A stretch of DNA of 33,483 nt from a bacterium (GTDB lineage Bacteria; Patescibacteriota; Patescibacteriia; UBA1558; UBA10009). Positions 2-23,617 of the stretch are shown here, piece after piece. Position numbers and translations under genes: made by a program. Below the pieces are notes generated by a model. It saw only the letters and a list, made by a program, of their open reading frames with translations. It did no database searches and was not told where the DNA came from. The stretch is taken from NCBI GenBank assembly GCA_018672055.1, contig JABHGM010000001.1, positions 573,494-606,976 of the forward strand, given 5' to 3'. The number at the start of each line of letters is the position of its first letter. Position 1 is the stretch's first letter.

Positions 2-454
2 GGTGAATTAAATTTAACATTAAGTGATATAAATGGTGATGGTAGTAGCGAGATAGTTGTTAATTCGGGTCAAGAAGTTAAAATATTTACAAATAGTGGT
101 AAGTTAATTCATAAATTTAATATATCTGTAAATAATTTATCTAATGATGTTAGAGTTATAGCTTCCAATCTATATGGTGATATACGTAGTGAGTTTATAG
201 TAATAGCTGGTACTACTGATAAAGCTTTTGTAAATATATTTAGTACAACTGGTAACTTAGAATATAGTTGGCAGGCATTTAATGAGTTTGATTTACATGA
301 CTTAGATATAGCTGTGGGTAATTTTAACAAAGGACCAAATAAAGAAGTATTAGTTATTAATAAGAATCTATTAAGAGTATATAGTTTTAATGGTGAGTTG
401 CTAGATGAATTAGTTGTTGATTATAATAATCAAGGAGTAAATATTGTATATTAA
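2..454 (+). CDS. 5'-truncated protein, C-terminal part with FG-GAP/VCBS-like repeats (probable secreted/surface beta-propeller)
   Basis: Manually translated open frame from base 2 to TAA at 452-454: GELNLTLSDINGDGSSEIVVNSGQEVKIF...IASNLYGDIRSEFIV...IAVGNFNKGPNKEVLV; DINGDG..EIVV is the FG-GAP Ca-loop pattern. Not in the ORF track because it lacks a start. Confidence 0.75.
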   Translation, partial: GELNLTLSDINGDGSSEIVVNSGQEVKIFTNSGKLIHKFNISVNNLSNDVRVIASNLYGDIRSEFIVIAGTTDKAFVNIFSTTGNLEYSWQAFNEFDLHDLDIAVGNFNKGPNKEVLVINKNLLRVYSFNGELLDELVVDYNNQGVNIVY

Positions 455-460
455 AAAAAG

Positions 461-11380: not shown

Positions 11381-12544
11381 ATGAAATATTGTTTAATAAA
11401 TAATCTCTATCCACCTTTTTCAATAGGTGGTGCTGAAAATATAGTAGAAATAATTGCTAACTCTTTAAGTGTTAATGATCAAGTTTTAGTTATAACTTCA
11501 AGTAATAATGGAGATACAGAATTTAAAGAGATTCCTAATTTAAAAATAATACGTTTGCCCAGTAATAATATATATCACTATTTAGATAACAAGGATAAAA
11601 AAATATTTTTTAAATTAATTTGGCATATTAAAGATGTATTTAATTTTAAAACAGCGTCTTTAGTTAAAGATATTTTAAAACGTGAAATGCCTGATGTAGT
11701 TATGACACATAATTTAAAAGGCTTGTCATATGAAATACCTAAAGTAATACGTAAATTAAAATTAAAACATATTCATACCCTACATGATTATCAATTACTT
11801 GATCCTCATGGTTCATTACATAGAAAGGGAATTAATATTGAAAAATTACCTATTAGTTTAAGAGTATATAAAAATATATGTTCTAAACTGTTTAAGAATA
11901 TACCATATATCATATCTCCATCTAAGTTTGTTTTAGATAAGCATTTAGAAAATGGTTTCTTTAAAAAATCTAAAACATTTGTTTTACCAAATCCAATTGT
12001 TTTAACAGATAAAAAACATTTAAAAAAGAATAATGAAAAAATTAAATTACTTTATCTCGGACAAATAGAAGAACATAAAGGAATACAATTTTTACTTGAA
12101 TCATTTATTAAATATAATTCTGTAGATTTTGAATTACAAGTAGTAGGGGACGGTACACTTTTAAATGGGTTAAGCAAGAAATATGCTAGTGATCAAATTA
12201 AATTCTTAGGCAGAGTAGCTCATGAAGAAATAAATAATATATTTAATGATATTGATTTAACCATAATACCTTCAATCTGGTATGATAATTCACCTACTGT
12301 AATTTATGAAAGTTATGTGAATAATACACCTGTTTTAGTCTCAAATATTGGTGGCTCTAAAGAATTAGTAGAAGAGGGTAAAACTGGCTTTATTTACAAA
12401 TATAATCAATATAGTGATATGTGTGCTAAATTAGATAAAATAGCTCAAAATAGGGCAGATTTAGCTAAATATGGGGCAAATGGTTACGAATTCATTAAAC
12501 AATTTGAAGTATCTAAATATATAGATAAATTAAAGAATATATGA
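11381..12544 (+). CDS. GT4 glycosyltransferase
   Basis: YPPFSIGGAE, HTLHDY, SPS, EHKG, PSIWYDNSPTVIYE. Confidence 0.88.
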   Translation: MKYCLINNLYPPFSIGGAENIVEIIANSLSVNDQVLVITSSNNGDTEFKEIPNLKIIRLPSNNIYHYLDNKDKKIFFKLIWHIKDVFNFKTASLVKDILKREMPDVVMTHNLKGLSYEIPKVIRKLKLKHIHTLHDYQLLDPHGSLHRKGINIEKLPISLRVYKNICSKLFKNIPYIISPSKFVLDKHLENGFFKKSKTFVLPNPIVLTDKKHLKKNNEKIKLLYLGQIEEHKGIQFLLESFIKYNSVDFELQVVGDGTLLNGLSKKYASDQIKFLGRVAHEEINNIFNDIDLTIIPSIWYDNSPTVIYESYVNNTPVLVSNIGGSKELVEEGKTGFIYKYNQYSDMCAKLDKIAQNRADLAKYGANGYEFIKQFEVSKYIDKLKNI

Positions 12545-13413
12545 GTAGTTTTAGAGAGATAAAAAGTTATTTAAATACTAAGTGTAAGGTAAAAGATGAT
12601 ATATTTATTTATCTACCTACACTTACTGATTTCCAGAAAAAAGAGATAGAATTTCATGAAAATGACAGATCTAATGAAAAAGATGTACATCAATTAAATA
12701 GTTTAAGAAATCAGTATTATCATAAGTTATTTTCTAAATATTTTAATGCTTTAAAAAAAGAAAGCATAATTTTAGAAATAGGCGTTGGTATTGGTTACGA
12801 TTTAATACCTCTGCTTAAAAAAGGTTTTAAGGTAATAGCAACTGACATATCAGAAAGTACTTTAAAAGATTTAAAAAATTATATTAATACTAATTACTCT
12901 GAGTATAAAGAAAATATTATTTATTTAGTTTCTGATGGTCAGAATTTACCTCTTAAAGATAATTCCATTGAAGCTATTTTAATTGTAGCTACTCTGCATC
13001 ACTTTGAAGATCAAAATAAGCTAGTTACTGAATTAAAACGTGTTTTAGATAGTGGTTACTTAGTACTAGGCATGGAACCATCTAAATTCATGATGTCATT
13101 TACTAAACTATTTAAGAATTCAGATAAATTGAGAGTTCATAAAGGACATAGTGAAGCTGATGAAACTCATTTAGGGTATTTAAAAAGTGATTTTAAAAAG
13201 TTAGGTAAAGTTATACGTATTAAAAGAGTTTGGTTACTTCTTGGATTTTTGCATTATTTTTTAGAAGCTATATATAGATTATTTAAATTAAAAAAGAGGA
13301 TTAAAATTCCTCTTGTTATTGAATACATATTTTTAGTATTTGATGAAATATTACTTTCTATTCCAATAATAAACTCAATTAATTTTCATTGGTTAGTGGT
13401 TATTAAATTTTAA
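12541..13413 (+). CDS. class I SAM-dependent methyltransferase
   Basis: Motif I ILEIGVGIG, ATDIS, DGQNLPL.DNS, ATLHH, ELKRVL. Confidence 0.88.
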   Translation: MSSFREIKSYLNTKCKVKDDIFIYLPTLTDFQKKEIEFHENDRSNEKDVHQLNSLRNQYYHKLFSKYFNALKKESIILEIGVGIGYDLIPLLKKGFKVIATDISESTLKDLKNYINTNYSEYKENIIYLVSDGQNLPLKDNSIEAILIVATLHHFEDQNKLVTELKRVLDSGYLVLGMEPSKFMMSFTKLFKNSDKLRVHKGHSEADETHLGYLKSDFKKLGKVIRIKRVWLLLGFLHYFLEAIYRLFKLKKRIKIPLVIEYIFLVFDEILLSIPIINSINFHWLVVIKF

Positions 13414-13423
13414 ATATTACTTA

Positions 13424-13485
13424 AATAAAAAAGCCCGAGGTAAAACCAAGGGCTTTTGTAATATTTATTAAAATATTACTTATTT
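13424..13485. repeat. 62-bp block, copy 1 (identical to 15813-15874), containing the terminator and the stop codon of the cassette gene
   Basis: aataaaaaagcccgaggtaaaaccaagggcttttgtaatatttattaaaatattacttattt occurs exactly at both loci, offset 2389 bp. Confidence 0.95.
13427..13457. terminator. bidirectional intrinsic terminator between convergent genes
   Basis: aaaagccc-ga-ggt-aaa-acc-aa-gggctttt hairpin flanked by A and T tracts. Confidence 0.85.
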
Positions 13486-15606
13486 TACTAATACTATTTT
13501 TTGTAGTTCAGTAAAATTTCCAGCAATCATACTAACTAGGTAAATACCACTTGAAAAATCTGTGGCATTCCAGGTTATTTGATAATTACCAGATATTTGG
13601 TATTCATTGACTAATGAATATACTTCGCGTCCTGATATATCGTATACTATTATACTTACATCAGAATCATGAGGTAGATCATAGCCAATAGTTGTTATTG
13701 GATTGAATGGATTGGGATAGGCAGGAGATAGTTTGAATAAACTAGCTGTCTCAACTATATTTGTTGGAACTTTATTTCCAAGCCAATCAGCTACTATTGC
13801 TTTTTCAATTTTCATCTCACCGGAGTATTCGAAAACTATTTCATTTAATTCTGAACCATCCATACTAATCATGATAATCTCATTACCATTTTGTTTCATT
13901 ATCCAACCATTTGGATAGTTGGTAATAGTGAAATCGCCAGTTGTTAGTAGCTGTATGCCTGCAATATCTCCATCAACTTTGAGTGAGCCGTTGTTAAACA
14001 GGAGATTAATTAATTCAGGAGATGATCTTCCTACAGGTTCATCAATAATTATGAACAGTATTTGTACTGCATCTAAAACATTGATTTCATTATCTTCGTT
14101 CATATCACTAGCCCAGAACGTATATTCAGAACTGATTATTGTTTCAAGTGCTATACCAATTACTTGTACCAGATCCACTACATCAATTTCTTCATTGCCA
14201 TCAATGTCACCTTTCATGCCTACTTGGATAGAACCAGAATCAGCAACAGTCAGATTTAGTGGTTGTCCTTCAGAATTACTTACAGAATATTCACCAATGT
14301 AAAATTCAATATTACTTCCTGGAATAGCATCCTCATTGACATATCCCGTAATTATTAAATTTTCCAAGTAATATCCTACCCATTCACCATCCTCTTCAAT
14401 TACTTGATTAAATGGATTTTGAACTCCAATGAATTCATATGTACCACCAAAATCAGCAGCATATGAGAATTCAAATGAAGACTCATGTTGCCAGAATGTA
14501 ACTGCATTTGGGGAGTCGATTAGTTCGAATTGGATTCCAGGAAGAGGATAATCTGAAACAATATTGATAATCAATTCAGTGTGTTCATTTGGAATTGTAT
14601 AGCCATTAATAATAAACATACCTATATTCTCTTCTCCATCAGTTATGAAGATTTCAGGACCCACGGCTGGTAATTGATGCGTGTGAACTTCAAAACCATA
14701 CATACTATCTTTTAAGATGAAATTATCCTCTTCAATTGATATATGGATAATTTCATTTAGCTCAGCATCTGGATCAACGTCGGCTGCCAAATAGAAGAGG
14801 AAATTACTTTCACTTGGTAATCCATAGTTAGGTTCAATTATATAACCATTTTCAATAGTATTACCATAGAGAAAATTTACTTGATTTTCATAGTCATTGA
14901 GGCTATTATATAATCTAATATTTTGAAGGCTTTCAATACTAGAAATAGTAAAGTTAACAGCTTCAAAGTGAAGATTATTTTCCATTACATAACCTCCAAA
15001 TTCCCATAACAAGACATTTTGATCGCCAGGTTGAACAGAAATATCATTAAATTCATAACCGGAACTATTTATATAAGCATCACCGACTTCAGCATTGCCA
15101 ATAGAAATTACATTTCCTATTATCATTAAGTTATCATCTGGATTCATATCTTCATAGATTACTTCAAGTATTTCATTATGAGTATTTCTTGCAAATACTT
15201 CAGATATACCTAGGTAAAATGTGTCACCTGCAGATGGCATCGCAACATCAAGCGTAAATGTAAATGTATAATTGGTTTCTGAAAGATACAATCCCTCAAA
15301 AAGAGCTACATCATTATCAAAACTTGATAGCGAAGCAAATTCTGTCCTTTCAGGACCAAAGTTTTGCCATATGGTAATATCTGAATATTGAATAGATTCT
15401 GTTGACCCACTGATTGTAGCAGCAAATCCATCAAGTAATACGTTGTATTCAGAATCAATAACCATATCTACAATTAGTACGGGAGCGTTATTTGCTAGCC
15501 TTGCACAGGTATATGAACCTTGGTTATTTTCATTTAAAGAAAGCGTTAGTGTTTGAGCATGTCCGATGGACATTATTAACATAAGTGTAAAGACGATATT
15601 TTTCAT
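13480..15606 (-). CDS. secreted acidic protein: signal peptide, Ig-like domains, cohesin-like domain, dockerin, T9SS type A/FlgD-like C-terminal domain
   Basis: MKNIVFTLMLIMSIGHA signal peptide; GDIDGNEEIDVVD...DMNEDNEINVLD duplicated Ca loops; AYPNPFNP.TTI.Y...VYDISGREV...SGIYLV...KIVLVK tail; SD aaggag. Confidence 0.85.
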   Translation of the reverse strand: MKNIVFTLMLIMSIGHAQTLTLSLNENNQGSYTCARLANNAPVLIVDMVIDSEYNVLLDGFAATISGSTESIQYSDITIWQNFGPERTEFASLSSFDNDVALFEGLYLSETNYTFTFTLDVAMPSAGDTFYLGISEVFARNTHNEILEVIYEDMNPDDNLMIIGNVISIGNAEVGDAYINSSGYEFNDISVQPGDQNVLLWEFGGYVMENNLHFEAVNFTISSIESLQNIRLYNSLNDYENQVNFLYGNTIENGYIIEPNYGLPSESNFLFYLAADVDPDAELNEIIHISIEEDNFILKDSMYGFEVHTHQLPAVGPEIFITDGEENIGMFIINGYTIPNEHTELIINIVSDYPLPGIQFELIDSPNAVTFWQHESSFEFSYAADFGGTYEFIGVQNPFNQVIEEDGEWVGYYLENLIITGYVNEDAIPGSNIEFYIGEYSVSNSEGQPLNLTVADSGSIQVGMKGDIDGNEEIDVVDLVQVIGIALETIISSEYTFWASDMNEDNEINVLDAVQILFIIIDEPVGRSSPELINLLFNNGSLKVDGDIAGIQLLTTGDFTITNYPNGWIMKQNGNEIIMISMDGSELNEIVFEYSGEMKIEKAIVADWLGNKVPTNIVETASLFKLSPAYPNPFNPITTIGYDLPHDSDVSIIVYDISGREVYSLVNEYQISGNYQITWNATDFSSGIYLVSMIAGNFTELQKIVLVK

Positions 15607-15651
15607 CTTTTCTCCTTTTCTTGTTTATTTATTCTTTTATCAACGTTCGGT

Positions 15652-15781
15652 AACATAAATACTTAACCTTTTAAAAAAGGTATTGAATTATGTTCATTTT
15701 ATTAATTTTTTAGTGTTATTTTACTTAAATATATTGACGAATAACTTATATAAGTTATTACGTATATTATTAGTAAATAAC
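15652..15781 (-). ncRNA. candidate structured 5' leader RNA (two hairpins), copy 1
   Basis: Imperfect inverted repeats at 15715-15781 and 15652-15694, starting at the predicted TSS; conserved in copy 2. Confidence 0.45.
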
Positions 15782-15785
15782 GTAA

Positions 15786-15814
15786 AATATAGCAAAAATA
15801 GTATATTTTGTCAA
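15786..15814 (-). promoter_or_regulatory. sigma70 promoter of the 708-aa gene
   Basis: Minus strand TTGACA (15814-15809), 17-nt spacer ending TGc, TATATT (15791-15786). Confidence 0.8.
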
Positions 15815-15874
15815 TAAAAAAGCCCGAGGTAAAACCAAGGGCTTTTGTAATATTTATTAAAATATTACTTATTT
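15813..15874 (-). terminator. 62-bp block copy 2; intrinsic terminator of the 1234-aa gene
   Basis: Same GC hairpin; on the minus strand it is followed by TTTTTT, which abuts the next TTGACA. Confidence 0.85.
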
Positions 15875-18800
15875 CAGTAAAACTACTTTTTGAGTTTTGT
15901 TGAAATTTTCTGCTACCATCGAAACTAGGTAAACGCCAGATGGTAAATCATTGGCATTCCAAGTTATTTGATAGTTACCAGAATTTTTCTGTCCTTCGTA
16001 AAGAACAGTTATTTCTTTGCCATTCATATCATAGACTATGATTTGAATAATAGAATCATCTTTTACTGAATATTCAATCGTAGTTACTGGATTGAATGGA
16101 TTAGGGTAAGGAGCATTAAGTTTGAAGTTATTAGGAATAACTTCGTTAATTGGAATTTCATTTCCTGACCAATCAACAAGTAGAGCATCAACTATGTTTA
16201 GATTACCAGTATATTCAAATATTATATTTGGTAATTCTGAACCGTCAGCGCTTATTGCTAATATGGTATTTCCATTTTTTTCAAACATCCAACCATGAGG
16301 TAGGAAAATTTGATTAATTTGGAAATCTTCGGAAACTTTGAATTGAAATCCAGCAATGTCACCGTCTGCTTCAATCTTAAACTGATTATTATCTACTGAG
16401 ATTGTTGCCTGTGAAGGTAACGATCGTCCTAGATCAAGTTGCAGAATAGCATCAACCAGTAGAACTACATCAACTATATTAAGAGTTCCATCTTCATTCA
16501 TATCAGCAAGTAGGAGTTGATACTCTGTCGGTAAGTTGAATATCCAGCTTATTAATTGAACGATGTCTACGATATTAATCATGCCATCATTATTCAAATC
16601 ACCTCTGAGATCAGCACCACTACAACTGAGTATTCTAACTACATCAAGTTGATTTATGAGGTGGCCATTGAACCAGTCCATTGAACTGAGCCAACCATCA
16701 TCATTAGTGTCGGTATGAAAGTTATTACCATCAGTACCAGTCATGTCTGACCAAATCATATATGCACCAGTACCATCATTCTCACCATCAGAACTTAGAC
16801 AATATTGTCCAGGTCCTAGATCCATATCTTCACCTTCACAAGATGGTTCAAGATACATTGGTGGAAGATAATCGGTGTCACCATCATACATATATGTTGC
16901 GATTTGATCACAGCTACCAGCGCCTGTATTTACATTATCGGCTGCAGCCTTCAAAATGTAGTACTTTGAAGTCCCAGCAGGAATTAATCGATCATCATTG
17001 AAAACAAGGAATATATCATGAATACTTATTGATTCATCGTAGTAAAGATAATCAGTCAAAGCAGTAAGTTCAGTGCCTGGATAGTTTCCATGGAATATCT
17101 GATAACTGTCAGCTCCTGATGATCCTGCAATAAGCAGAGTAGCATCTTCATAACTATTTCCTTCATAGATTTGAAAGTTGCTTAGCCTTAATAAATTACC
17201 TGTTGGAATATCATCCAATAAGTTTAATTTAAAACCTTGCTTCTTATAACCTATGGAAGTATTAGCTTCTGCAGCTTCAACTCGCCAACGATACAGTTCT
17301 GCTGGACCGTTGAAAAAAATTGTGCTGGTTTCAGTATCAGGAGTGATAGTTGGAACATTACCATGAACAATCATATCATTACCATAAATATTCCAGTTAT
17401 TACTAGTAGCAGTAAAAATTGAACCAGATTCACCATGAGCTTCAAAGTTATCATCATAATCAAATTTAGCATTTATTACATCACCAGTATACGCTTCATA
17501 TGTTTGGTTGATAATTGGGACACTAAATGTAACTTCAACAATTCTTGAGCTATTAACAGGTATAAATAATGGATTTGATGTGATATCAAAGTCCATATTA
17601 CCAAATAGTTGAACTACCTCAGCAACAATTTCTTCACCAGCTTCATTTTGATACCTAATTGTTCCTAAATCAACTGATCGATTGAATAGATTACCATTGT
17701 CTTGTCTAATACGAAGCTTGTTAACATGAAATGACTCATTAGTAGCTTGGAAGTTTAGATTAAGCATAGGAACATCATAAGTACCAGCAATAATATTCGT
17801 AGTAACAGGTTGATCCCATCCAGTAACATTTAATGTGCCAGCATTAGTGATTTTTAATCGATATGAGTTATTGAATGAAGACGATGAACCATTGACATCA
17901 GTGATAGACCAAGAAGTGCCATCGTTATCAGTTAGAGTAACATTATTTCCATTCGAATCAACTATTATTAAATCATAAATAGTTGCAATATTAACCTTTA
18001 TATACTTATTACCTGGGAAGGTAATTGAGTATGCATTATGAGCGATATCACCAACAACTTTCATTATATGAGTTTCGTTAACAGGAATGATCATGTTCAT
18101 ATCGTTAAATGAAGCAGCGCCGGTAGTTGAACTAAAAGCCTCTATAGTTTCATTTAGGTTAGTGGTCATATTTGGGTCAACTGTAATATCATATAGTCTT
18201 AAGTTTGAAACCATGTCACTGATATATACATATTCACCATCACCAGTGCCTTGTCTTCTGACCATACAATTTATAGGATCTATACCAATATATCCATAGA
18301 GAGTAAGTGATGAAATGGTCATGTCAGAACCTGGTCCAGCATTAAAAGCAATTTCTCCAAGATTTATATTAGTAAGACCTTGAACAACGTTAACCTCTGC
18401 CGGGTTTGATGCTAATGCAACACCAAGTGATGAAGCTACTACCGTCATATGATTACCTTGGGTATAGGTTGATGGTGTGATATCTGTTATCCATTCATTA
18501 GTATCTGTATTTAACATCCCGTTTAAAGGACTGATTGAATATGGAGTTTCAGGTGATGTATACCATTGACCAGTAGATCCAAGTACAGAATAGTAACCAC
18601 CAACTGAATTATTCCCAAGATCCATAATGATAGCAAAGTTTCTGGTTTGACTTGTATAGAAATCAAATGAGTCTGTAAAATCGTAATATACACCATTATC
18701 ATCGTTGTTAATGTTCATAAAATCTGAGCAATCGACTGATGCAGTACTTTCGCCATTATCAGTGTCTACAATATGAATATTATAGATCCCTTCTGTACAT

Positions 18801-19573
18801 GATAACGAAGATGTATCAAGATCAGTGGACCATTCATGTAATTCAACTCGGAGGCTTTGAAGTTCTGAATTTGTTCCAGCAGTTATAGAGAATTCCATAA
18901 AGGTAACATCATTTGTACCATATCCATAAACATTTGGTTCAGGACCTAAGAATTCTACATAAACACTATTTTCACCAGATTCAGGTATTACCGCTAGATT
19001 AGCACCATATATGATTTCATCATTTGGCCATAGGTAAGTGACTTCAGGATTATAATCCCATTCTTCGGGAATGAAGAAGAATTGTCCTTCAGTACCACCT
19101 AGATTTTCAGTATAGATTCGTAAGCTAATTGAGTTAGCTTCATCAGGCATTAGATAGAAAGCTGTCTGTTCATTAAAGAACATAACTTGTGACCAACCAC
19201 TATCATCCGTCAAATGATACGAAGAAACCATTGGAGTAATCGGTTCACCATCATATCCAAGTATTTCTGCATAGAAACTACTTGAACCGATTGAACCATC
19301 AGCATAGAACTTCATATTTTGAATATATGTCTCGATATTGTTGTAGATATCTAAGCTGATTACAGTATAGGGCAATCCGGCAGGGATTTGCCCATCTTCA
19401 TGACTTTCGTAAAAAGCTACAACTCCTTCATCCCGAGTATTCAGTTCAGGTGTATTATTAACCAGTTCCATGATATCCAGATCTGGATTAACACTAGAAA
19501 CTAGGTTGTATTCGGTATCAATTCCAGCAAACATTACTGAAATAACGATCAATGGAATAAATAATGTTTTCAT
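15869..19573 (-). CDS. large secreted acidic protein: signal peptide, tandem Ig-like domains, dockerin, T9SS type A/FlgD-like C-terminal domain
   Basis: MKTLFIPLIVISVMFA signal peptide; repeated beta-rich units (SLGVALASNP..NVVQG, GTLNVTG..P...NIIAG); GDLNNDGMINIVD...DMNEDGTLNIVD; PYPNPFNP...SGVYLV...KVVLLK; SD aagggg. Confidence 0.85.
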   Translation of the reverse strand: MKTLFIPLIVISVMFAGIDTEYNLVSSVNPDLDIMELVNNTPELNTRDEGVVAFYESHEDGQIPAGLPYTVISLDIYNNIETYIQNMKFYADGSIGSSSFYAEILGYDGEPITPMVSSYHLTDDSGWSQVMFFNEQTAFYLMPDEANSISLRIYTENLGGTEGQFFFIPEEWDYNPEVTYLWPNDEIIYGANLAVIPESGENSVYVEFLGPEPNVYGYGTNDVTFMEFSITAGTNSELQSLRVELHEWSTDLDTSSLSCTEGIYNIHIVDTDNGESTASVDCSDFMNINNDDNGVYYDFTDSFDFYTSQTRNFAIIMDLGNNSVGGYYSVLGSTGQWYTSPETPYSISPLNGMLNTDTNEWITDITPSTYTQGNHMTVVASSLGVALASNPAEVNVVQGLTNINLGEIAFNAGPGSDMTISSLTLYGYIGIDPINCMVRRQGTGDGEYVYISDMVSNLRLYDITVDPNMTTNLNETIEAFSSTTGAASFNDMNMIIPVNETHIMKVVGDIAHNAYSITFPGNKYIKVNIATIYDLIIVDSNGNNVTLTDNDGTSWSITDVNGSSSSFNNSYRLKITNAGTLNVTGWDQPVTTNIIAGTYDVPMLNLNFQATNESFHVNKLRIRQDNGNLFNRSVDLGTIRYQNEAGEEIVAEVVQLFGNMDFDITSNPLFIPVNSSRIVEVTFSVPIINQTYEAYTGDVINAKFDYDDNFEAHGESGSIFTATSNNWNIYGNDMIVHGNVPTITPDTETSTIFFNGPAELYRWRVEAAEANTSIGYKKQGFKLNLLDDIPTGNLLRLSNFQIYEGNSYEDATLLIAGSSGADSYQIFHGNYPGTELTALTDYLYYDESISIHDIFLVFNDDRLIPAGTSKYYILKAAADNVNTGAGSCDQIATYMYDGDTDYLPPMYLEPSCEGEDMDLGPGQYCLSSDGENDGTGAYMIWSDMTGTDGNNFHTDTNDDGWLSSMDWFNGHLINQLDVVRILSCSGADLRGDLNNDGMINIVDIVQLISWIFNLPTEYQLLLADMNEDGTLNIVDVVLLVDAILQLDLGRSLPSQATISVDNNQFKIEADGDIAGFQFKVSEDFQINQIFLPHGWMFEKNGNTILAISADGSELPNIIFEYTGNLNIVDALLVDWSGNEIPINEVIPNNFKLNAPYPNPFNPVTTIEYSVKDDSIIQIIVYDMNGKEITVLYEGQKNSGNYQITWNANDLPSGVYLVSMVAENFNKTQKVVLLK

Positions 19574-19619
19574 TTATTTCCCCTTTATTTGTTTACTTAT
19601 TCATTTTTCAACGTTCGGT

Positions 19620-19748
19620 AACATAAATACTTAACCTTTTAAAAAAGGTATAGAATTATGTTCTTTTTTTAATTATTTATTGTTATTTTACTTAAATATA
19701 TAGACGTATAACCTATATAAGTTATTACGTATATTATTAGTAAATAAC
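19620..19748 (-). ncRNA. candidate structured 5' leader RNA, copy 2
   Basis: Hairpins at 19682-19748 and 19620-19662. Confidence 0.45.
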
Positions 19749-19753
19749 ATAGA

Positions 19754-19782
19754 AATATAGCAGAAATAGCTTATTTTGTCAA
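19754..19782 (-). promoter_or_regulatory. sigma70 promoter of the 1234-aa gene
   Basis: Minus strand TTGACA (19782-19777), 17-nt spacer ending TGc, TATATT (19759-19754). Confidence 0.8.
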
Positions 19783-19814
19783 TAATAAAACTAACTTTTA
19801 CTATAAGTTAGTTT
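19783..19814 (-). terminator. probable terminator of the 696-aa gene
   Basis: aaactaactt / aagttagttt inverted repeat (19788-19797, 19805-19814) with a T-rich tail on the minus strand. Confidence 0.6.
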
Positions 19815-19825
19815 ATAATATATAT

Positions 19826-21916
19826 TTAATTAACGTATTCAAATATATAGTTTTTACCATCAATAGCATACCAGTAATCAGCACTTTGCTTATGTTCTAA
19901 GATCCTGTCTTTAGCATCAAACCAATAATCATTTATTACTAAGTAAATAGTATTAACATCAGTTAAATATCTAGCAGTAGCAATAACATCTACTGTTTTT
20001 TCTTTAGCATAGGCTAAGTCTTCATATAATTCATATAATCTGTTGCCTGTAGGTACTGGGTAAAAGTAGAAATCATTATGATAATATTTATAACTAAGCT
20101 CAGAAATTGCAGAAGCAGAAACTGGTTGAGCAGCTAGAACTATGTATGGTCTACCTTGATTTAAGTTTTCTAAAAAGTTAACTGTTTTAATATCAGTAAC
20201 AGATGTTGAAAAACCATGATCCTCACTTATCTTATCAATTCTTGGATATGAAAGATAAAAAGAGGTGGTAAAGGCTAAAGAAATTAAAATAGTGGAGAGA
20301 AGAATAAAAGTGGAACTTTGTTTTAATAGTTTATTAATTAATAAATAGAAAGCTAAAATGATGAGAGGCAGTAAAAAGTAAAGACTCATTTCTAAAACTC
20401 GAATAGGATAATTTTGTTGTTCGTGAGATAGCAAACTAAAAAATGAAATACCTGTAACTAGTATTAAATAATTAGCTAGCATGATTAAAGTCATAACTGG
20501 ATAAATACTAAAACGTTTAAATCTTTTTTTAGTAATTAAAAATATTACAGTAATAGCTATTAAAAATACTAAGAATGCTATTATGTTATACCCATAGTTA
20601 TATATTAAATCATAAATTGAAATAAAAGGACGATAGAATAATGAGTAATCTTGATTACTTAAAACAGTAGCTAAGTTTTGAGTCCAATTACTATTTAAAC
20701 CAACTTTCATTTCTGATAGTGTTTGGGAGTTAATAAAAAAGGCAAAAGGCAAGGCAAAAAAAGAAACAACTACTATTTCCCAGAATATACTTTTACTTAA
20801 AAGTTTAGGCAGAGTAAGTCTAGATCTATGATATATAAATAGTAAAACAATAAAAATAATACAGGGTATACCAGCTAAAGGATGAATAGCTAGAGTCATG
20901 AGCGATAGTAGAGCAAGTGGCCAAATAGCAACCTTAGGATGAGATATAAAGTAAATACCTAAAAATATAGTAATTAGTAGAAATACATTAGCTAAAGCTT
21001 GAGGTGTAGTAACAATAAAATTAGTAAATGGTATAGCTAGAAGTAAAAAGATAATTAGTAAAATGGTTTTTTCTTTTATTTTAAAATTATTTTTAAGAGC
21101 ATAGTAAATAGTAAGTGGTATATAAACAGCAGACATAAGTGGTACTAGTATCTTATCTATATTAATAACTGAAAAGTTAAATAATTTATGTAAGTATATT
21201 ATTAAACTATATTGCCCAATGTAATAAAATGGCTTAGGTAGCAGAGTACCTGATTCCAAAATTAATTTAAGATTAGCTCTATGTATAAAAGGATCATAAT
21301 CAAAACCTACTTGGTAAGTAATAACAGCAATAATAGAACTAATAAAAAAATGTAATATTATTAAAGTTAAGTAATTACCTTTTTTATTAAATATTAATAA
21401 GTTAAGTAAAATAAAAGAAGCAATAAAGTAAATAAAGAATATTTGACTAGGTATTACTTCCCATGGAGATCTAATACTAAGTCCAGTTCTAGAATTAAAA
21501 ACTAAAAATGTAATTATTGATAATAGTATTAAATAGATTAAAACAAGAATTAATTTTTTTAAATTAAACTTAGTTTTTATTTTCTCTGGAAAATCAATTA
21601 ATAGAGGATACTTAATAATTATTGGTAAATAAAGTAATGGAATAATTAGTAAGTTGAATAAAAAAGTTAAATCATTTAATTTAAATAAATAAAAACAAAC
21701 AGTATTAATTAAACTAGCAATTACCAGAGTAAATAATATGCCAAAGAATATTTTACATGGATAAGAATTTTTTATAAATAGATAATTACCCAGTATTAAA
21801 GAAATATATATTAAATATAAAAGCCCAATAAGTAATTTAAAAGGGAATACTATAATTAAAACAATTAGTATTAACGAGATTAGTAAATGTTTCTGCCAAT
21901 TAATTAAATAAGTCAT
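19826..21916 (-). CDS. polytopic membrane protein, putative GT-C-fold glycosyltransferase
   Basis: Many TM segments, loop motif GFDYDPFIH, HPL motif, soluble C-terminal domain. Confidence 0.6.
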   Translation of the reverse strand: MTYLINWQKHLLISLILIVLIIVFPFKLLIGLLYLIYISLILGNYLFIKNSYPCKIFFGILFTLVIASLINTVCFYLFKLNDLTFLFNLLIIPLLYLPIIIKYPLLIDFPEKIKTKFNLKKLILVLIYLILLSIITFLVFNSRTGLSIRSPWEVIPSQIFFIYFIASFILLNLLIFNKKGNYLTLIILHFFISSIIAVITYQVGFDYDPFIHRANLKLILESGTLLPKPFYYIGQYSLIIYLHKLFNFSVINIDKILVPLMSAVYIPLTIYYALKNNFKIKEKTILLIIFLLLAIPFTNFIVTTPQALANVFLLITIFLGIYFISHPKVAIWPLALLSLMTLAIHPLAGIPCIIFIVLLFIYHRSRLTLPKLLSKSIFWEIVVVSFFALPFAFFINSQTLSEMKVGLNSNWTQNLATVLSNQDYSLFYRPFISIYDLIYNYGYNIIAFLVFLIAITVIFLITKKRFKRFSIYPVMTLIMLANYLILVTGISFFSLLSHEQQNYPIRVLEMSLYFLLPLIILAFYLLINKLLKQSSTFILLSTILISLAFTTSFYLSYPRIDKISEDHGFSTSVTDIKTVNFLENLNQGRPYIVLAAQPVSASAISELSYKYYHNDFYFYPVPTGNRLYELYEDLAYAKEKTVDVIATARYLTDVNTIYLVINDYWFDAKDRILEHKQSADYWYAIDGKNYIFEYVN

Positions 21917-21997
21917 AGTATAATTTTAACATAATTTATCAATTAAATCAGTACTTATCTAAAACTAAAAGATTTGATATAATATATAAGTAAATTT
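21917..21997. promoter_or_regulatory. divergent promoter region with extended -10 elements
   Basis: Plus: TGaTATAAT (21975-21983), 14 nt before ATG 21998. Minus: TGtTAAAAT (21931-21923), 6 nt before ATG 21916. Confidence 0.55.
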
Positions 21998-23617
21998 ATG
22001 AATAGAATATTTAGAAAGTTTAATAAGAAACTTGTAATTTTAATGTTATTTGGAATAGCTTTTTTTATTATTTATTCATTCTATGGTAATAATGCATTTA
22101 ATGTAGATTCTAGTATTAAAATATATAATTCACCTGATGCTACTGCTAATTATACGTTTAGTAAAGTTTTTTACGAAAGTAATGAGTTAAGTTTTAAAGA
22201 TGATGTTAATTCTGTAGCAGGTAAATTAGTTAGTCCTCGTAGTATGAGAGTTATTGATGGCTTAACAGTGCCTGCTAGTTTTATGGGTATGCCTCTATTT
22301 TATGGCTTACTTAGTAAAGCATTTGGTTTAAATTTAATTAATTACTTTACTCCACTTATTGCAGTATTAGGAGTTTTTATATTTTATTTCTTAATTAAAT
22401 TGTTATTTGATAAAAAAATAGCTTTTTGGTCTGCTATATTTTTATTTATTAATCCTGCTTTTTGGTTCTACTCCTCAAAGAGTATGATGCCTAATATATT
22501 ATTTATTACACTTTTCTTATTTACGTTATATTATTCTGTACTCTCAATAAAAAAGAAAAAGATATATTATTATTTATTAGGTGCTATATTTTTAGCTTTA
22601 ACTTTAATGGTTAGGACTTCAGCTATAGTATGGATATTACCTATCTTTTTTATACTTGGCATATTTAATTTTCAAAGACTTAAATGGAAATACATTATAT
22701 TATCACTACTTGTCTTTTTAATTACGTTTTCACCAATACTATATTTTAATTTAGAAAATTATGGTCATGTTTTAAGTATAGGTTATGAATTTGGCCTAGA
22801 GTTAGATGATGATAGTCTATTAAATAATAGTATTTCTTTAGTACAAAGTATATTTTTGCCATTTAGTTTTCATCCAAAAACAGCTCTATTTAATACATTT
22901 GATTATACTTTTAGGTTATTTCCTATTTGGTCTATTATTTCTTTGATTGGTTTACTCATTTTTAGTTTTAAAGCTATTACTCGTAAAAAGTATGATGAAT
23001 TAATGTATCTTTTTATATTTTCAGCAATTGGAGGATATTTAATGATATATTATGGTTCATGGAGATTTCATGATAATCCTAATCCTGATTTAATTACTAT
23101 TGGGACTTCGTATGTAAGGTACTTTTTACCTATATATATCTTTTTAATTCCTATGGTAATACATAGTATTAGTAATTTATATAAAAGGCAGAAATATATT
23201 TTACCTGTTGTCTCTGTTGTTTTATTTATAATACTCAGTTGGCAAAGTTATCAAGTAGTTGTTTTAAGTGAAGGTGATGGCTTAAAAGATGTTAGTAACA
23301 CCTTGTCAGGTTATCAAGTATTAGCTCAAGAAGTTAATAATTTAACTCCTGATAATTCTATTATAATAGCTGATCGTTTAGATAAAGTATTTTTTCCTTC
23401 AAGAAGTGTAATATTTAAATTAAATAATGATCGGGATTATAATGCAGTTTATGATTTAATTGATGCTGGATATCCTGTATATTATTTTTACTTTACTAGA
23501 TCTGATGAATTACTAAATGAATTTAATAATAAATATTTTACTAAATTTAATTTGAAAGTAGGGGAGAGTATTAAAGACTTTGAAGAACAAAGTTTATATC
23601 CAGTAAATAAATTATGA
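21998..23617 (+). CDS. GT-C membrane glycosyltransferase (ArnT/PMT_2, GT39-like)
   Basis: Acidic first-loop motif NSPDATANY, many TMs, NPAFWFYS, LMVR, YVRYFLP. Confidence 0.75.
   Translation: MNRIFRKFNKKLVILMLFGIAFFIIYSFYGNNAFNVDSSIKIYNSPDATANYTFSKVFYESNELSFKDDVNSVAGKLVSPRSMRVIDGLTVPASFMGMPLFYGLLSKAFGLNLINYFTPLIAVLGVFIFYFLIKLLFDKKIAFWSAIFLFINPAFWFYSSKSMMPNILFITLFLFTLYYSVLSIKKKKIYYYLLGAIFLALTLMVRTSAIVWILPIFFILGIFNFQRLKWKYIILSLLVFLITFSPILYFNLENYGHVLSIGYEFGLELDDDSLLNNSISLVQSIFLPFSFHPKTALFNTFDYTFRLFPIWSIISLIGLLIFSFKAITRKKYDELMYLFIFSAIGGYLMIYYGSWRFHDNPNPDLITIGTSYVRYFLPIYIFLIPMVIHSISNLYKRQKYILPVVSVVLFIILSWQSYQVVVLSEGDGLKDVSNTLSGYQVLAQEVNNLTPDNSIIIADRLDKVFFPSRSVIFKLNNDRDYNAVYDLIDAGYPVYYFYFTRSDELLNEFNNKYFTKFNLKVGESIKDFEEQSLYPVNKL

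Follow-up and report, generated by a model that had tools for sequence, protein, structure and literature searches.

The C-terminal domain (CTD) that belongs to type IX secretion systems (T9SS) is commonly read as marking type IX secretion among diderm bacteria of the Fibrobacteres-Chlorobi-Bacteroidetes (FCB) group. A second module of exported proteins, the dockerin, is known from proteins of the Patescibacteria, also called the candidate phyla radiation (CPR), one of which is described as essential in Southlakia (PMC10633639). For the dockerin protein SEML1_0315 of Southlakia epibionticum, which is reported to be envelope-associated, a targeting to the host surface was suggested by the authors (Wang et al. 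2023, PMC10633639). The Patescibacteria themselves were called monoderm in a 2024 PNAS review (PMC11665869). A full-text literature search returned no paper that describes T9SS-type tails in this phylum. Here, two such tails are described. They are found in two neighboring genes, P0001 and P0002, within a stretch of 33,483 nucleotides (hereafter the window) from a bacterium of the GTDB lineage Patescibacteriota; Patescibacteriia; UBA1558; UBA10009 (assembly GCA_018672055.1, contig JABHGM010000001.1, positions 573,494 to 606,976 of the forward strand). Both proteins end in a cassette of ~250 residues, in which a type I dockerin is followed by a beta domain of ~95 residues and by a type A T9SS CTD. 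The best explanation as a whole, which is considered probable, is that of an FCB-derived cassette on Sec-exported CPR proteins with an extracellular docking or adhesion role.

The order of the three parts had already been proposed in the original prediction, which was made from the nucleotide sequence, and it is confirmed by the profile searches. In both proteins PF18962 (Por_Secre_tail), TIGR04183 (NCBIfam) and PF00404 (Dockerin_1) score above their respective cut-offs of 27, 23 and 22.9 bits (Table 1). The motifs DGDIAG.Q, YPNPFNP.TTI, SG.YLV and K.VL.K can be seen in each of the two translations, and relatives conserve them. The calcium repeats of the P0001 dockerin read DIDGNEEIDVVD and DMNEDNEINVLD, and in both proteins the CTD stops 3 residues short of the stop codon. 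The beta domain between dockerin and tail matches no Pfam family. The FlgD-like character that had also been ascribed to the tail is not supported by its profile, as PF13860 (FlgD_ig) reaches 20.6 bits in P0001 and 23.0 bits in P0002, below its cut-off of 27. Likewise, the interval first given for the two proteins (13480-16610) covers all of P0001 but just the C-terminal cassette of P0002, a gene that reaches 19573. The N-terminus of P0001 carries a Sec-type signal peptide, MKNIVFTLMLIMSIGHAQ. The signal peptides of both proteins are hydrophobic N-termini that were read from the sequence by eye, and they suggest that P0001 and P0002 would be exported by Sec and be extracellular. The tail is not confined to these two genes. 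TIGR04183 matches six open reading frames (ORFs) spread over the contig, all above the cut-off, and five of the six also contain a dockerin. A seventh protein of the genome ends in a dockerin without a tail, and the dockerins of this genome number 6.

The fold of the cassette was predicted with AlphaFold for residues 455-708 of P0001 from an alignment of 55 rows, at a predicted local distance difference test (pLDDT) score of 93.9 and a predicted template modeling (pTM) score of 0.81. The modeled dockerin superimposes on the C. thermocellum dockerin 2ccl_B over 62 of 62 residues (Z 11.5, root-mean-square deviation (rmsd) 1.3), and the dockerin profile matches solved type I dockerins with an E value of 3e-7. 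For the modeled CTD, 84 residues align with the PorU CTD (6za2_B, Z 10.7, rmsd 2.1, 25% identity). The CTDs of mirolase (8qb1_A, Z 10.4), NucA (8glk_D, Z 9.7) and PorZ (5m11_A, Z 9.1) are matched as well, at identities of 20-25%. The beta domain of P0001 was also modeled alone (pLDDT 89.4). The 15 best rows of VIA, a method that works without Foldseek, consist of cohesins only, at Z 8.8-7.8 and with 93-97 residues of the 99 aligned, and the first 24 Foldseek rows are cohesin entries (best E 3.4e-4). PF00963 gives no cohesin match in the isolated beta domains at E values up to 1. Because the domain is short and its Z borderline, it is labeled cohesin-like here and is not called a cohesin, a borderline assignment that follows from the models. 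An identity as neurotoxin-like binding domain was rejected: the clostridial jelly-roll match, at an E value of ~1e-3 only, is treated as chance beta-sandwich similarity.

The organism that carries the cassettes can be placed with several markers. Its genome (G000, contig C1; other G numbers denote family relatives or control genomes) is a single contig of 946,732 bases with 29.4% GC and 43 tRNAs, at an estimated completeness of 96.6% and a contamination of 0.06%. The small-subunit rRNA is bacterial. Organisms are named for 21 of the 120 MetK relatives listed: 18 are Patescibacteria-type, 3 are given just as 'bacterium' and none belongs to another phylum. The Patescibacteria-type names among the matches listed are Komeili-, Buchanan-, Kuenen-, Kerfeld- and Falkowbacteria, Parcubacteria and 'Patescibacteria group'. 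A search for the ribosomal protein uL30 was negative in this genome and positive in 14 of 14 control genomes; to our knowledge, CPR bacteria lack uL30. The genomes of a sample from the same phylum (401 genomes) are mostly ~0.6-1.3 Mb in size. The genome is thus that of a marine member of the Patescibacteria (CPR), close to the Komeilibacteria, and the MetK relatives, the missing uL30 and the small genomes of the phylum bear out the earlier impression that the contig looked CPR-like. As a side observation, ARAGORN lists a tRNA-like gene at G000:C1:209888-209958 whose two-base anticodon loop is given as undetermined, '(ca)'.

In this genome, the machinery that would normally use the tail is not found. 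LpxC was not detected by profile search, and Omp85 (PF01103) has no match, while 7 of 14 control genomes have one. SprA matches in none of the 3 CPR genomes searched and in both Ignavibacteriota controls. PorV matches in none of 5 CPR genomes and in all four FCB controls, in two of them above the cut-off. A full-length PorU was not found in the CPR genomes and is near full-length in 4/4 FCB controls (3 above the cut-off). For G000, the PorU model is matched in its CTD part only, namely by the CTD proteins themselves. An exception among the relatives is a C25-peptidase-like stretch inside a 1279-residue CTD protein of G473. In this ORF (G473:C9:8552-11653), a match to the C25-peptidase section of the PorU model (54.5 bits, positions 367-534) is joined to a tail of the T9SS type; a CPR genome here encodes a gingipain-like or PorU-like peptidase. 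The GldM model TIGR03517 finds nothing in any of 9 genomes; the 4 FCB controls are also blank, and the model is hence uninformative. The search proposed in the original prediction, which was run for SprA, PorV and PorU but not for GldK, GldL and GldN, is negative in this genome and positive in the FCB controls, in line with its view that CPR bacteria are not known to have an outer membrane or a T9SS. Judged from its genes alone, this cell would have no outer membrane. Because there would be neither an outer membrane nor a translocon, the tail could not be a signal for outer-membrane crossing in this cell.

The tail is nevertheless widespread in the lineage. Within the order, 53 of 86 genomes contain TIGR04183 matches above the cut-off, at 1-7 copies per genome, compared with 22 of the 401 genomes in the phylum sample. 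The carriers are distributed over the families f1 (7/10, without G000), f2 (14/14), f151 (6/6), f149 (19/39) and f147 (6/14). A single capture peculiar to this contig, as had initially been envisaged, is contradicted by these counts. The position of the tail is strict: it closes the protein, right before the stop codon, in each of 40 ORFs taken from other CPR genomes, and it is at the extreme C-terminus in each of the 6 of this genome. The full cassette occurs in only 4 of those 40 ORFs, and this genome is unusual among CPR genomes in bearing a cassette of the Marinimicrobia type. When P0002 is compared with its orthologue P0005, the dockerin is the most conserved part (82.8% identity), followed by the beta domain (58.7%), the CTD (56.5%) and the passenger core (50.1%). 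The CTDs of CPR and FCB bacteria share the same conserved columns (r = 0.88). From these sequence comparisons the tail appears to be kept under selection.

As to the origin of the cassette, the two genes are atypical for their genome. The GC content at third codon positions (GC3) is 0.210 in P0001 and 0.228 in P0002, at the 95th and 97th percentiles of 542 ORFs, and the rise spans the whole genes. The z values of the codon log-likelihood are -2.3 and -2.6, respectively, and of the 6 CTD genes in the genome 5 have an atypical codon usage. The native paralogues of the P0002 passenger (36th and 65th percentiles) and P0003 (43rd) have a typical GC3. A search of the protein index with the cassette yielded full-length matches at 36-48% identity, the named ones being Marinimicrobia. 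Matches confined to the tail, at ~50% identity, bear the names Ignavibacteria, Calditrichota, Zixibacteria and 'FCB group'. When species-representative genomes were scanned, 592 relatives were obtained. Among the best 80, most of the named ones are FCB-type, and those with the full cassette are Neomarinimicrobiota. The lineages that had been named at first as typical bearers of the tail (Marinimicrobia, Ignavibacteria, Calditrichota) are therefore its nearest named relatives, and Zixibacteria is to be added. Two further contigs with tails of the PNPFNP type, L053 ('Candidatus Dependentiae') and L036 ('uncultured Alphaproteobacteria'), may represent mis-binning or additional non-FCB cases.

An unrooted tree was built from 31 full cassettes. 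P0001, P0002, P0005 and one more copy of this genome form a CPR-only group (support 89/92). The copy of the gene at C1:931540 falls into a well-supported group with Marinimicrobia in this tree, and in a tree limited to rows of named origin it pairs with Marinimicrobia L031 at 99/98. A single CPR clade is rejected by the approximately unbiased test, both with all rows (p-AU 3.5e-6) and with the named-origin rows only (10 CPR, 5 FCB; p-AU 2.9e-4). Because the CPR copies are not one clade, the sequences point to more than one transfer as the source of the CPR cassettes. These transfers would have run from FCB to CPR bacteria, given that the tail serves a secretion system native to the FCB group. 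A phylogeny of the tail alone (125 rows, 92 columns), which had been suggested as a check, was informative in part: the CPR label clusters, with 13 changes compared with 37.3 in shuffled data, but the origin is not given, as only 3 of 122 branches are well supported.

The genomic position of P0001 and P0002 was compared among relatives. The locus was retrieved for 6 genomes of the family, 5 of which were readable on both sides. The orthologues of the methyltransferase at the left border and of P0003 are adjacent and convergent in 3 of these 5 (G471, G477 and G475). At the same junction, G470 has one unrelated ORF (L130:3152-3817) and G473 has three (L132:3263-7079), and a CTD gene is found there in none of the 5. 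Because the flanking genes of the relatives are adjacent or separated by unrelated ORFs, P0001 and P0002 constitute an insertion of 6.4 kb. It lies at a junction that varies, within a glycan cluster whose remainder is conserved in the family, and this junction looks like a hot spot for gene insertion. The horizontal capture of the tail, which had been put forward from its motif, is accordingly supported by the insertion into conserved synteny, the atypical codons, the rejection of a single CPR clade and the pairing of the C1:931540 copy with Marinimicrobia.

The passengers of the two cassettes differ. For the P0001 passenger, no relative but itself was found in an index of 5.8 billion proteins, and searches of this genome and of the loci and proteins fetched here were negative as well. 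The ESM Atlas gave weak leads only, with scores of at most 0.82 and template modeling (TM) values below 0.5. The passenger core of P0002, by comparison, is represented by two paralogues elsewhere in this genome, at 52-55% identity, and by orthologues in other genomes of the family. Both paralogues finish at '...TLDV.R.LN', the exact point at which P0002 enters the dockerin. The cassette of P0002 is thus joined to the end of a passenger that belongs to a native CPR family. The large cassette-free paralogues, at G000:C1:762052-766107 (1351 residues) and 357299-360352 (1017 residues), belong to a surface-protein family that is conserved across the CPR family.

A mechanism can be proposed for the favored docking or adhesion role. 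Sec would export P0001 and P0002 to the exterior of the cell, where the cassette would act as a calcium-dependent plug-and-socket unit. Partner modules for the dockerin and the cohesin-like part would be carried either by surface proteins of the same cell or by a different cell, and the CTD would close the docking unit as its terminal immunoglobulin-like (Ig-like) domain.

Several points weigh against this mechanism or against the FCB origin. The partner that the cassette would bind is putative. The Pfam cohesin model finds no match in this genome, and of 4 family genomes searched 1 has a cohesin, with one match. The beta domain is cohesin-like by fold only, lies ~40 residues below solved cohesins in length, and its Z of 8.8 is near the level at which the tool warns of common arrangements. 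The Ig-like fold of the CTD is generic, too; because unrelated MG and Ig domains reach equal Z, the family is identified here by the hidden Markov models (HMMs) and not by the fold. The conserved columns of the CPR tails are the family-wide ones, which could be explained by folding alone or by continued recognition by a machinery. With regard to the origin, a named FCB source is available for only 5 cassette rows, the CPR label of P0005 has its 38,058-base contig as sole basis, and the direction of transfer was inferred while the trees are unrooted. Finally, contigs assembled from sequencing runs (Logan) break at the borders of both genes, and none bridges the borders of the island.

An engagement of host machinery, one of the uses suggested in the original prediction along with a host as possible donor, is considered unlikely, but it accounts for a number of the same observations. 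In this case, the CPR cell would be an epibiont of a Marinimicrobia-like FCB bacterium. Parts of the host surface (PorV, the PorU/PorZ attachment complex and surface cohesins) would bind or process the displayed CTD and dockerin, thereby tethering the epibiont. It would fit that the CPR tails keep the columns of FCB tails, including the C-terminal K..L.K, that they are always at the extreme C-terminus, and that the cassettes are nearest to Marinimicrobia with more than one exchange inferred. In G487, a Marinimicrobia genome, 8 cohesin matches are found, and PorV and PorU occur in both genomes of that lineage, while this genome combines its dockerins with no Pfam cohesin. A marine setting would fit as well: 20 runs on marine or seawater samples (17 studies) contain 0.94-0.99 of the words sampled from a 9.8-kb stretch. 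However, no physical link ties this organism to any host, and 36 of the 40 CTD proteins from other CPR genomes have no Marinimicrobia-type cassette. Many of these fall in CPR-only clades, which fits a function within the CPR equally well. Moreover, the T9SS normally recognizes the CTD from the periplasmic side, and the surface exposes only PorV and the attachment steps. A bolder version, which is held to be similarly doubtful, proposes that marine CPR bacteria of this order repeatedly take cassettes from their FCB hosts, here Marinimicrobia, and that the host machinery binds or covalently processes them as a molecular grappling hook. If it were true, the nearest relatives of a cassette would name the host.

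Rather unlikely as well is an unknown sorting or anchoring system of the CPR cell itself, not homologous to the T9SS, that would act on the CTD after Sec export. The enrichment in the order (53/86 versus 22/401 phylum-wide), the strict C-terminal position in 46 of 46 ORFs, the conserved hallmark residues and the move of the tail onto a native passenger would all be expected from such a system. It is, however, hard to point to its components. The six CTD genes sit among housekeeping genes and their neighborhoods have no common gene, no candidate machinery was identified, SprA, PorV and a full-length PorU were not found, and the C25-like stretch of G473 lies in a protein that bears a CTD itself.

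The tail might also be a relic, that is, a functionless and not yet decayed leftover of recently transferred FCB genes. This is deemed quite improbable. The codon usage of five of the six CTD genes does suggest an incomplete adaptation to the genome, the genomic spot is variable and the passenger of P0001 is an orphan. A relic would, however, hardly be as conserved as its passenger or more so, as is seen between P0002 and P0005, nor be intact in 46 of 46 ORFs, common to 53 of 86 genomes of the order and attached to a native passenger. Small streamlined genomes are, in addition, expected to shed useless DNA.

Very improbable, lastly, is an artefact in which the genes come from a co-assembled FCB bacterium, or from a reduced diderm with a T9SS: although the Logan contigs of 4/4 runs break at the gene borders with none bridging, and GC3 is above that of the genome, the break points coincide with repeats common to P0001 and P0002, the depths match the flanks in four runs, five other loci on the contig have CTD or dockerin genes, relatives in the order carry the tail, the P0002 passenger is a CPR family, contamination is 0.06%, and Omp85, LpxC, SprA and PorV were not found. 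The Logan contigs of these 4 runs (4 studies) cover every base and show no differences. Over a four-fold range, the depths of the P0001 and P0002 contigs equal those of the flanking contigs (18.7/21.9/19.1/17.6, 9.9/10.7/8.65/9.71, 7.65/7/6.7/7.66 and 5/5.5/5.2/6.35). A Logan joint from 15485 to 19835 was dropped, as it has a side of 21 letters and lies inside the repeated upstream regions. P0005, a full-length orthologue of P0002 whose cassette is 64% identical, and a MetK 89% identical to that of the window are each located on one 38,058-base contig. The original prediction had left room for a misassembled segment or a contig from an FCB organism; what is found is six CTD genes over one contig, depths that match the flanks and HMM scores above the cut-offs.

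The surroundings of the two genes consist of sugar and glycan genes. The window contains GT2 and GT4 transferases, epimerases, MetK, AdoHcy hydrolase and Rml enzymes on the plus strand, broken by 3 minus-strand genes. P0003, which borders the insertion on the right, has orthologues in 9 of 10 other family genomes (51-83% identity). It adjoins a PMT_2-type (GT-C) glycosyltransferase in all 5 relatives that show that side, the counterpart in the window being located at 21998-23617. With P0003, the surface-glycan cluster probably contains a second GT-C-like enzyme.

P0001 and P0002 also share their non-coding borders. The upstream copies are 90.7% identical over 214 nt (blastn; repeat families D2, D3 and D5), and they hold the two best promoter-like sites in 13300-22100. 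The site of P0001 matches 11 of 12 positions and has a TG extension. The common leader may be a shared regulatory element; Rfam gave no match in the shared leader regions at E values up to 1. Downstream, a simple terminator scan called no site, the 59-nt 3' repeat included. A leader piece of 32 nt recurs at C1:931485-931516, just upstream of the CTD gene at C1:931540. Directly upstream of this gene lies a protein of 1640 residues with RHS repeats, a TcdB-midN-like region and FG-GAP repeats (L137:11-4930, equal to G000:C1:926510-931429), and next after the gene comes a paralogue whose end is a dockerin with no tail.

Table 1. Features of the P0001/P0002 insertion and its borders. Positions are those of the window, and residues are those of the respective protein.
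Feature	Residues	Position	Strand	Description
Methyltransferase		12541..13413	plus	Left insertion border; last plus-strand gene of the conserved glycan cluster; Pfam
P0001 3' end		13424..13482	minus	59 nt from stop codon, 100% identical to 15813-15871 after P0002; GC-rich hairpin, then T run
P0001		13480-15606	minus	708 residues, translates without stops; signal peptide, orphan passenger, cassette
P0001 passenger	~19-460		minus	Orphan
P0001 type I dockerin	465-515	14062..14214	minus	PF00404 24.2 bits; two calcium-loop repeats
P0001 cohesin-like beta-sandwich	526-624	13735..14031	minus	Carries DGDIAGIQ motif
P0001 type A T9SS CTD	630-705	13492..13719	minus	PF18962 42.4 bits, TIGR04183 40.8 bits
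P0001 upstream region		15607..15821	minus	Promoter-like TTGACA-17-TATATT (15786-15814), perfect-looking palindrome AATAACTTATATAAGTTAT, hairpin, ribosome-binding site
P0002		15869-19573	minus	1234 residues, translates without stops; signal peptide, native-family passenger, cassette
P0002 passenger core	204-983	16625-18964	minus	Native CPR family
P0002 type I dockerin	991-1043	16445..16603	minus	PF00404 30.4 bits
P0002 cohesin-like beta domain	~1052-1150	16124..16420	minus	Aligns with the P0001 domain
P0002 type A T9SS CTD	1156-1231	15881..16108	minus	PF18962 42.7 bits, TIGR04183 43.2 bits
P0002 upstream region		19574..19789	minus	Second copy of P0001 promoter and leader
P0003		19826..21916	minus	696-residue polytopic membrane protein, no Pfam family; native; right insertion border

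The closest described systems each share a part of this architecture. The type I cohesin-dockerin pairs of the clostridial cellulosome (2ccl, 1ohz) share with the cassette the dockerin fold (rmsd 1.3 over 62 residues) with two calcium-loop repeats, and the beta domain next to it in the cassette is cohesin-like in fold. Here, however, no glycoside hydrolase or scaffoldin is present, and any binding is putative. The cohesin-like domain has ~95 instead of ~140 residues, is missed by PF00963 and is located in the same chain as the dockerin.

The comparison with SEML1_0315 of Southlakia goes by description only: a dockerin occurs in both of these epibiotic or CPR cases, whereas a T9SS-type tail is not mentioned in the available part of PMC10633639.

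The solved type A CTDs of the T9SS (PorU 6za2 and PorZ 5m11 of P. gingivalis, mirolase 8qb1 of T. forsythia and NucA 8glk of F. johnsoniae) show the same seven-strand Ig-like sandwich at the extreme C-terminus of proteins with a Sec signal peptide, with the same PNPFN, G.Y and K..L.K columns. In contrast to those, the CTDs described here are encoded by a genome without detectable SprA, PorV, full-length PorU, Omp85 or LpxC, in a phylum described as monoderm. The tail is intact, conserved and common (53/86) in a monoderm, ultra-small order without the secretion system, even on native proteins. The CTD would then have a second, undescribed use, and the annotation 'T9SS cargo' from the tail alone would be wrong for these lineages.

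A likeness across the whole cassette is found with the dockerin/cohesin-like/CTD proteins of the Marinimicrobia (Fidelibacterota; P0006-P0008, L005 and L031). The cassette of 250 residues aligns with them at 31-48% identity over 89-100% of the query, with equal domain order and motifs. The two differ in their passengers and in the equipment of the cell, as the Marinimicrobia possess PorV, PorU and Pfam-detectable cohesins. Because PorV and PorU are present, the tail has its normal use there. We know of no marine CPR bacterium in culture. The affinity of the cassette to Marinimicrobia proteins offers a concrete candidate partner or host for marine CPR bacteria, and may hint at the cells on which they live.

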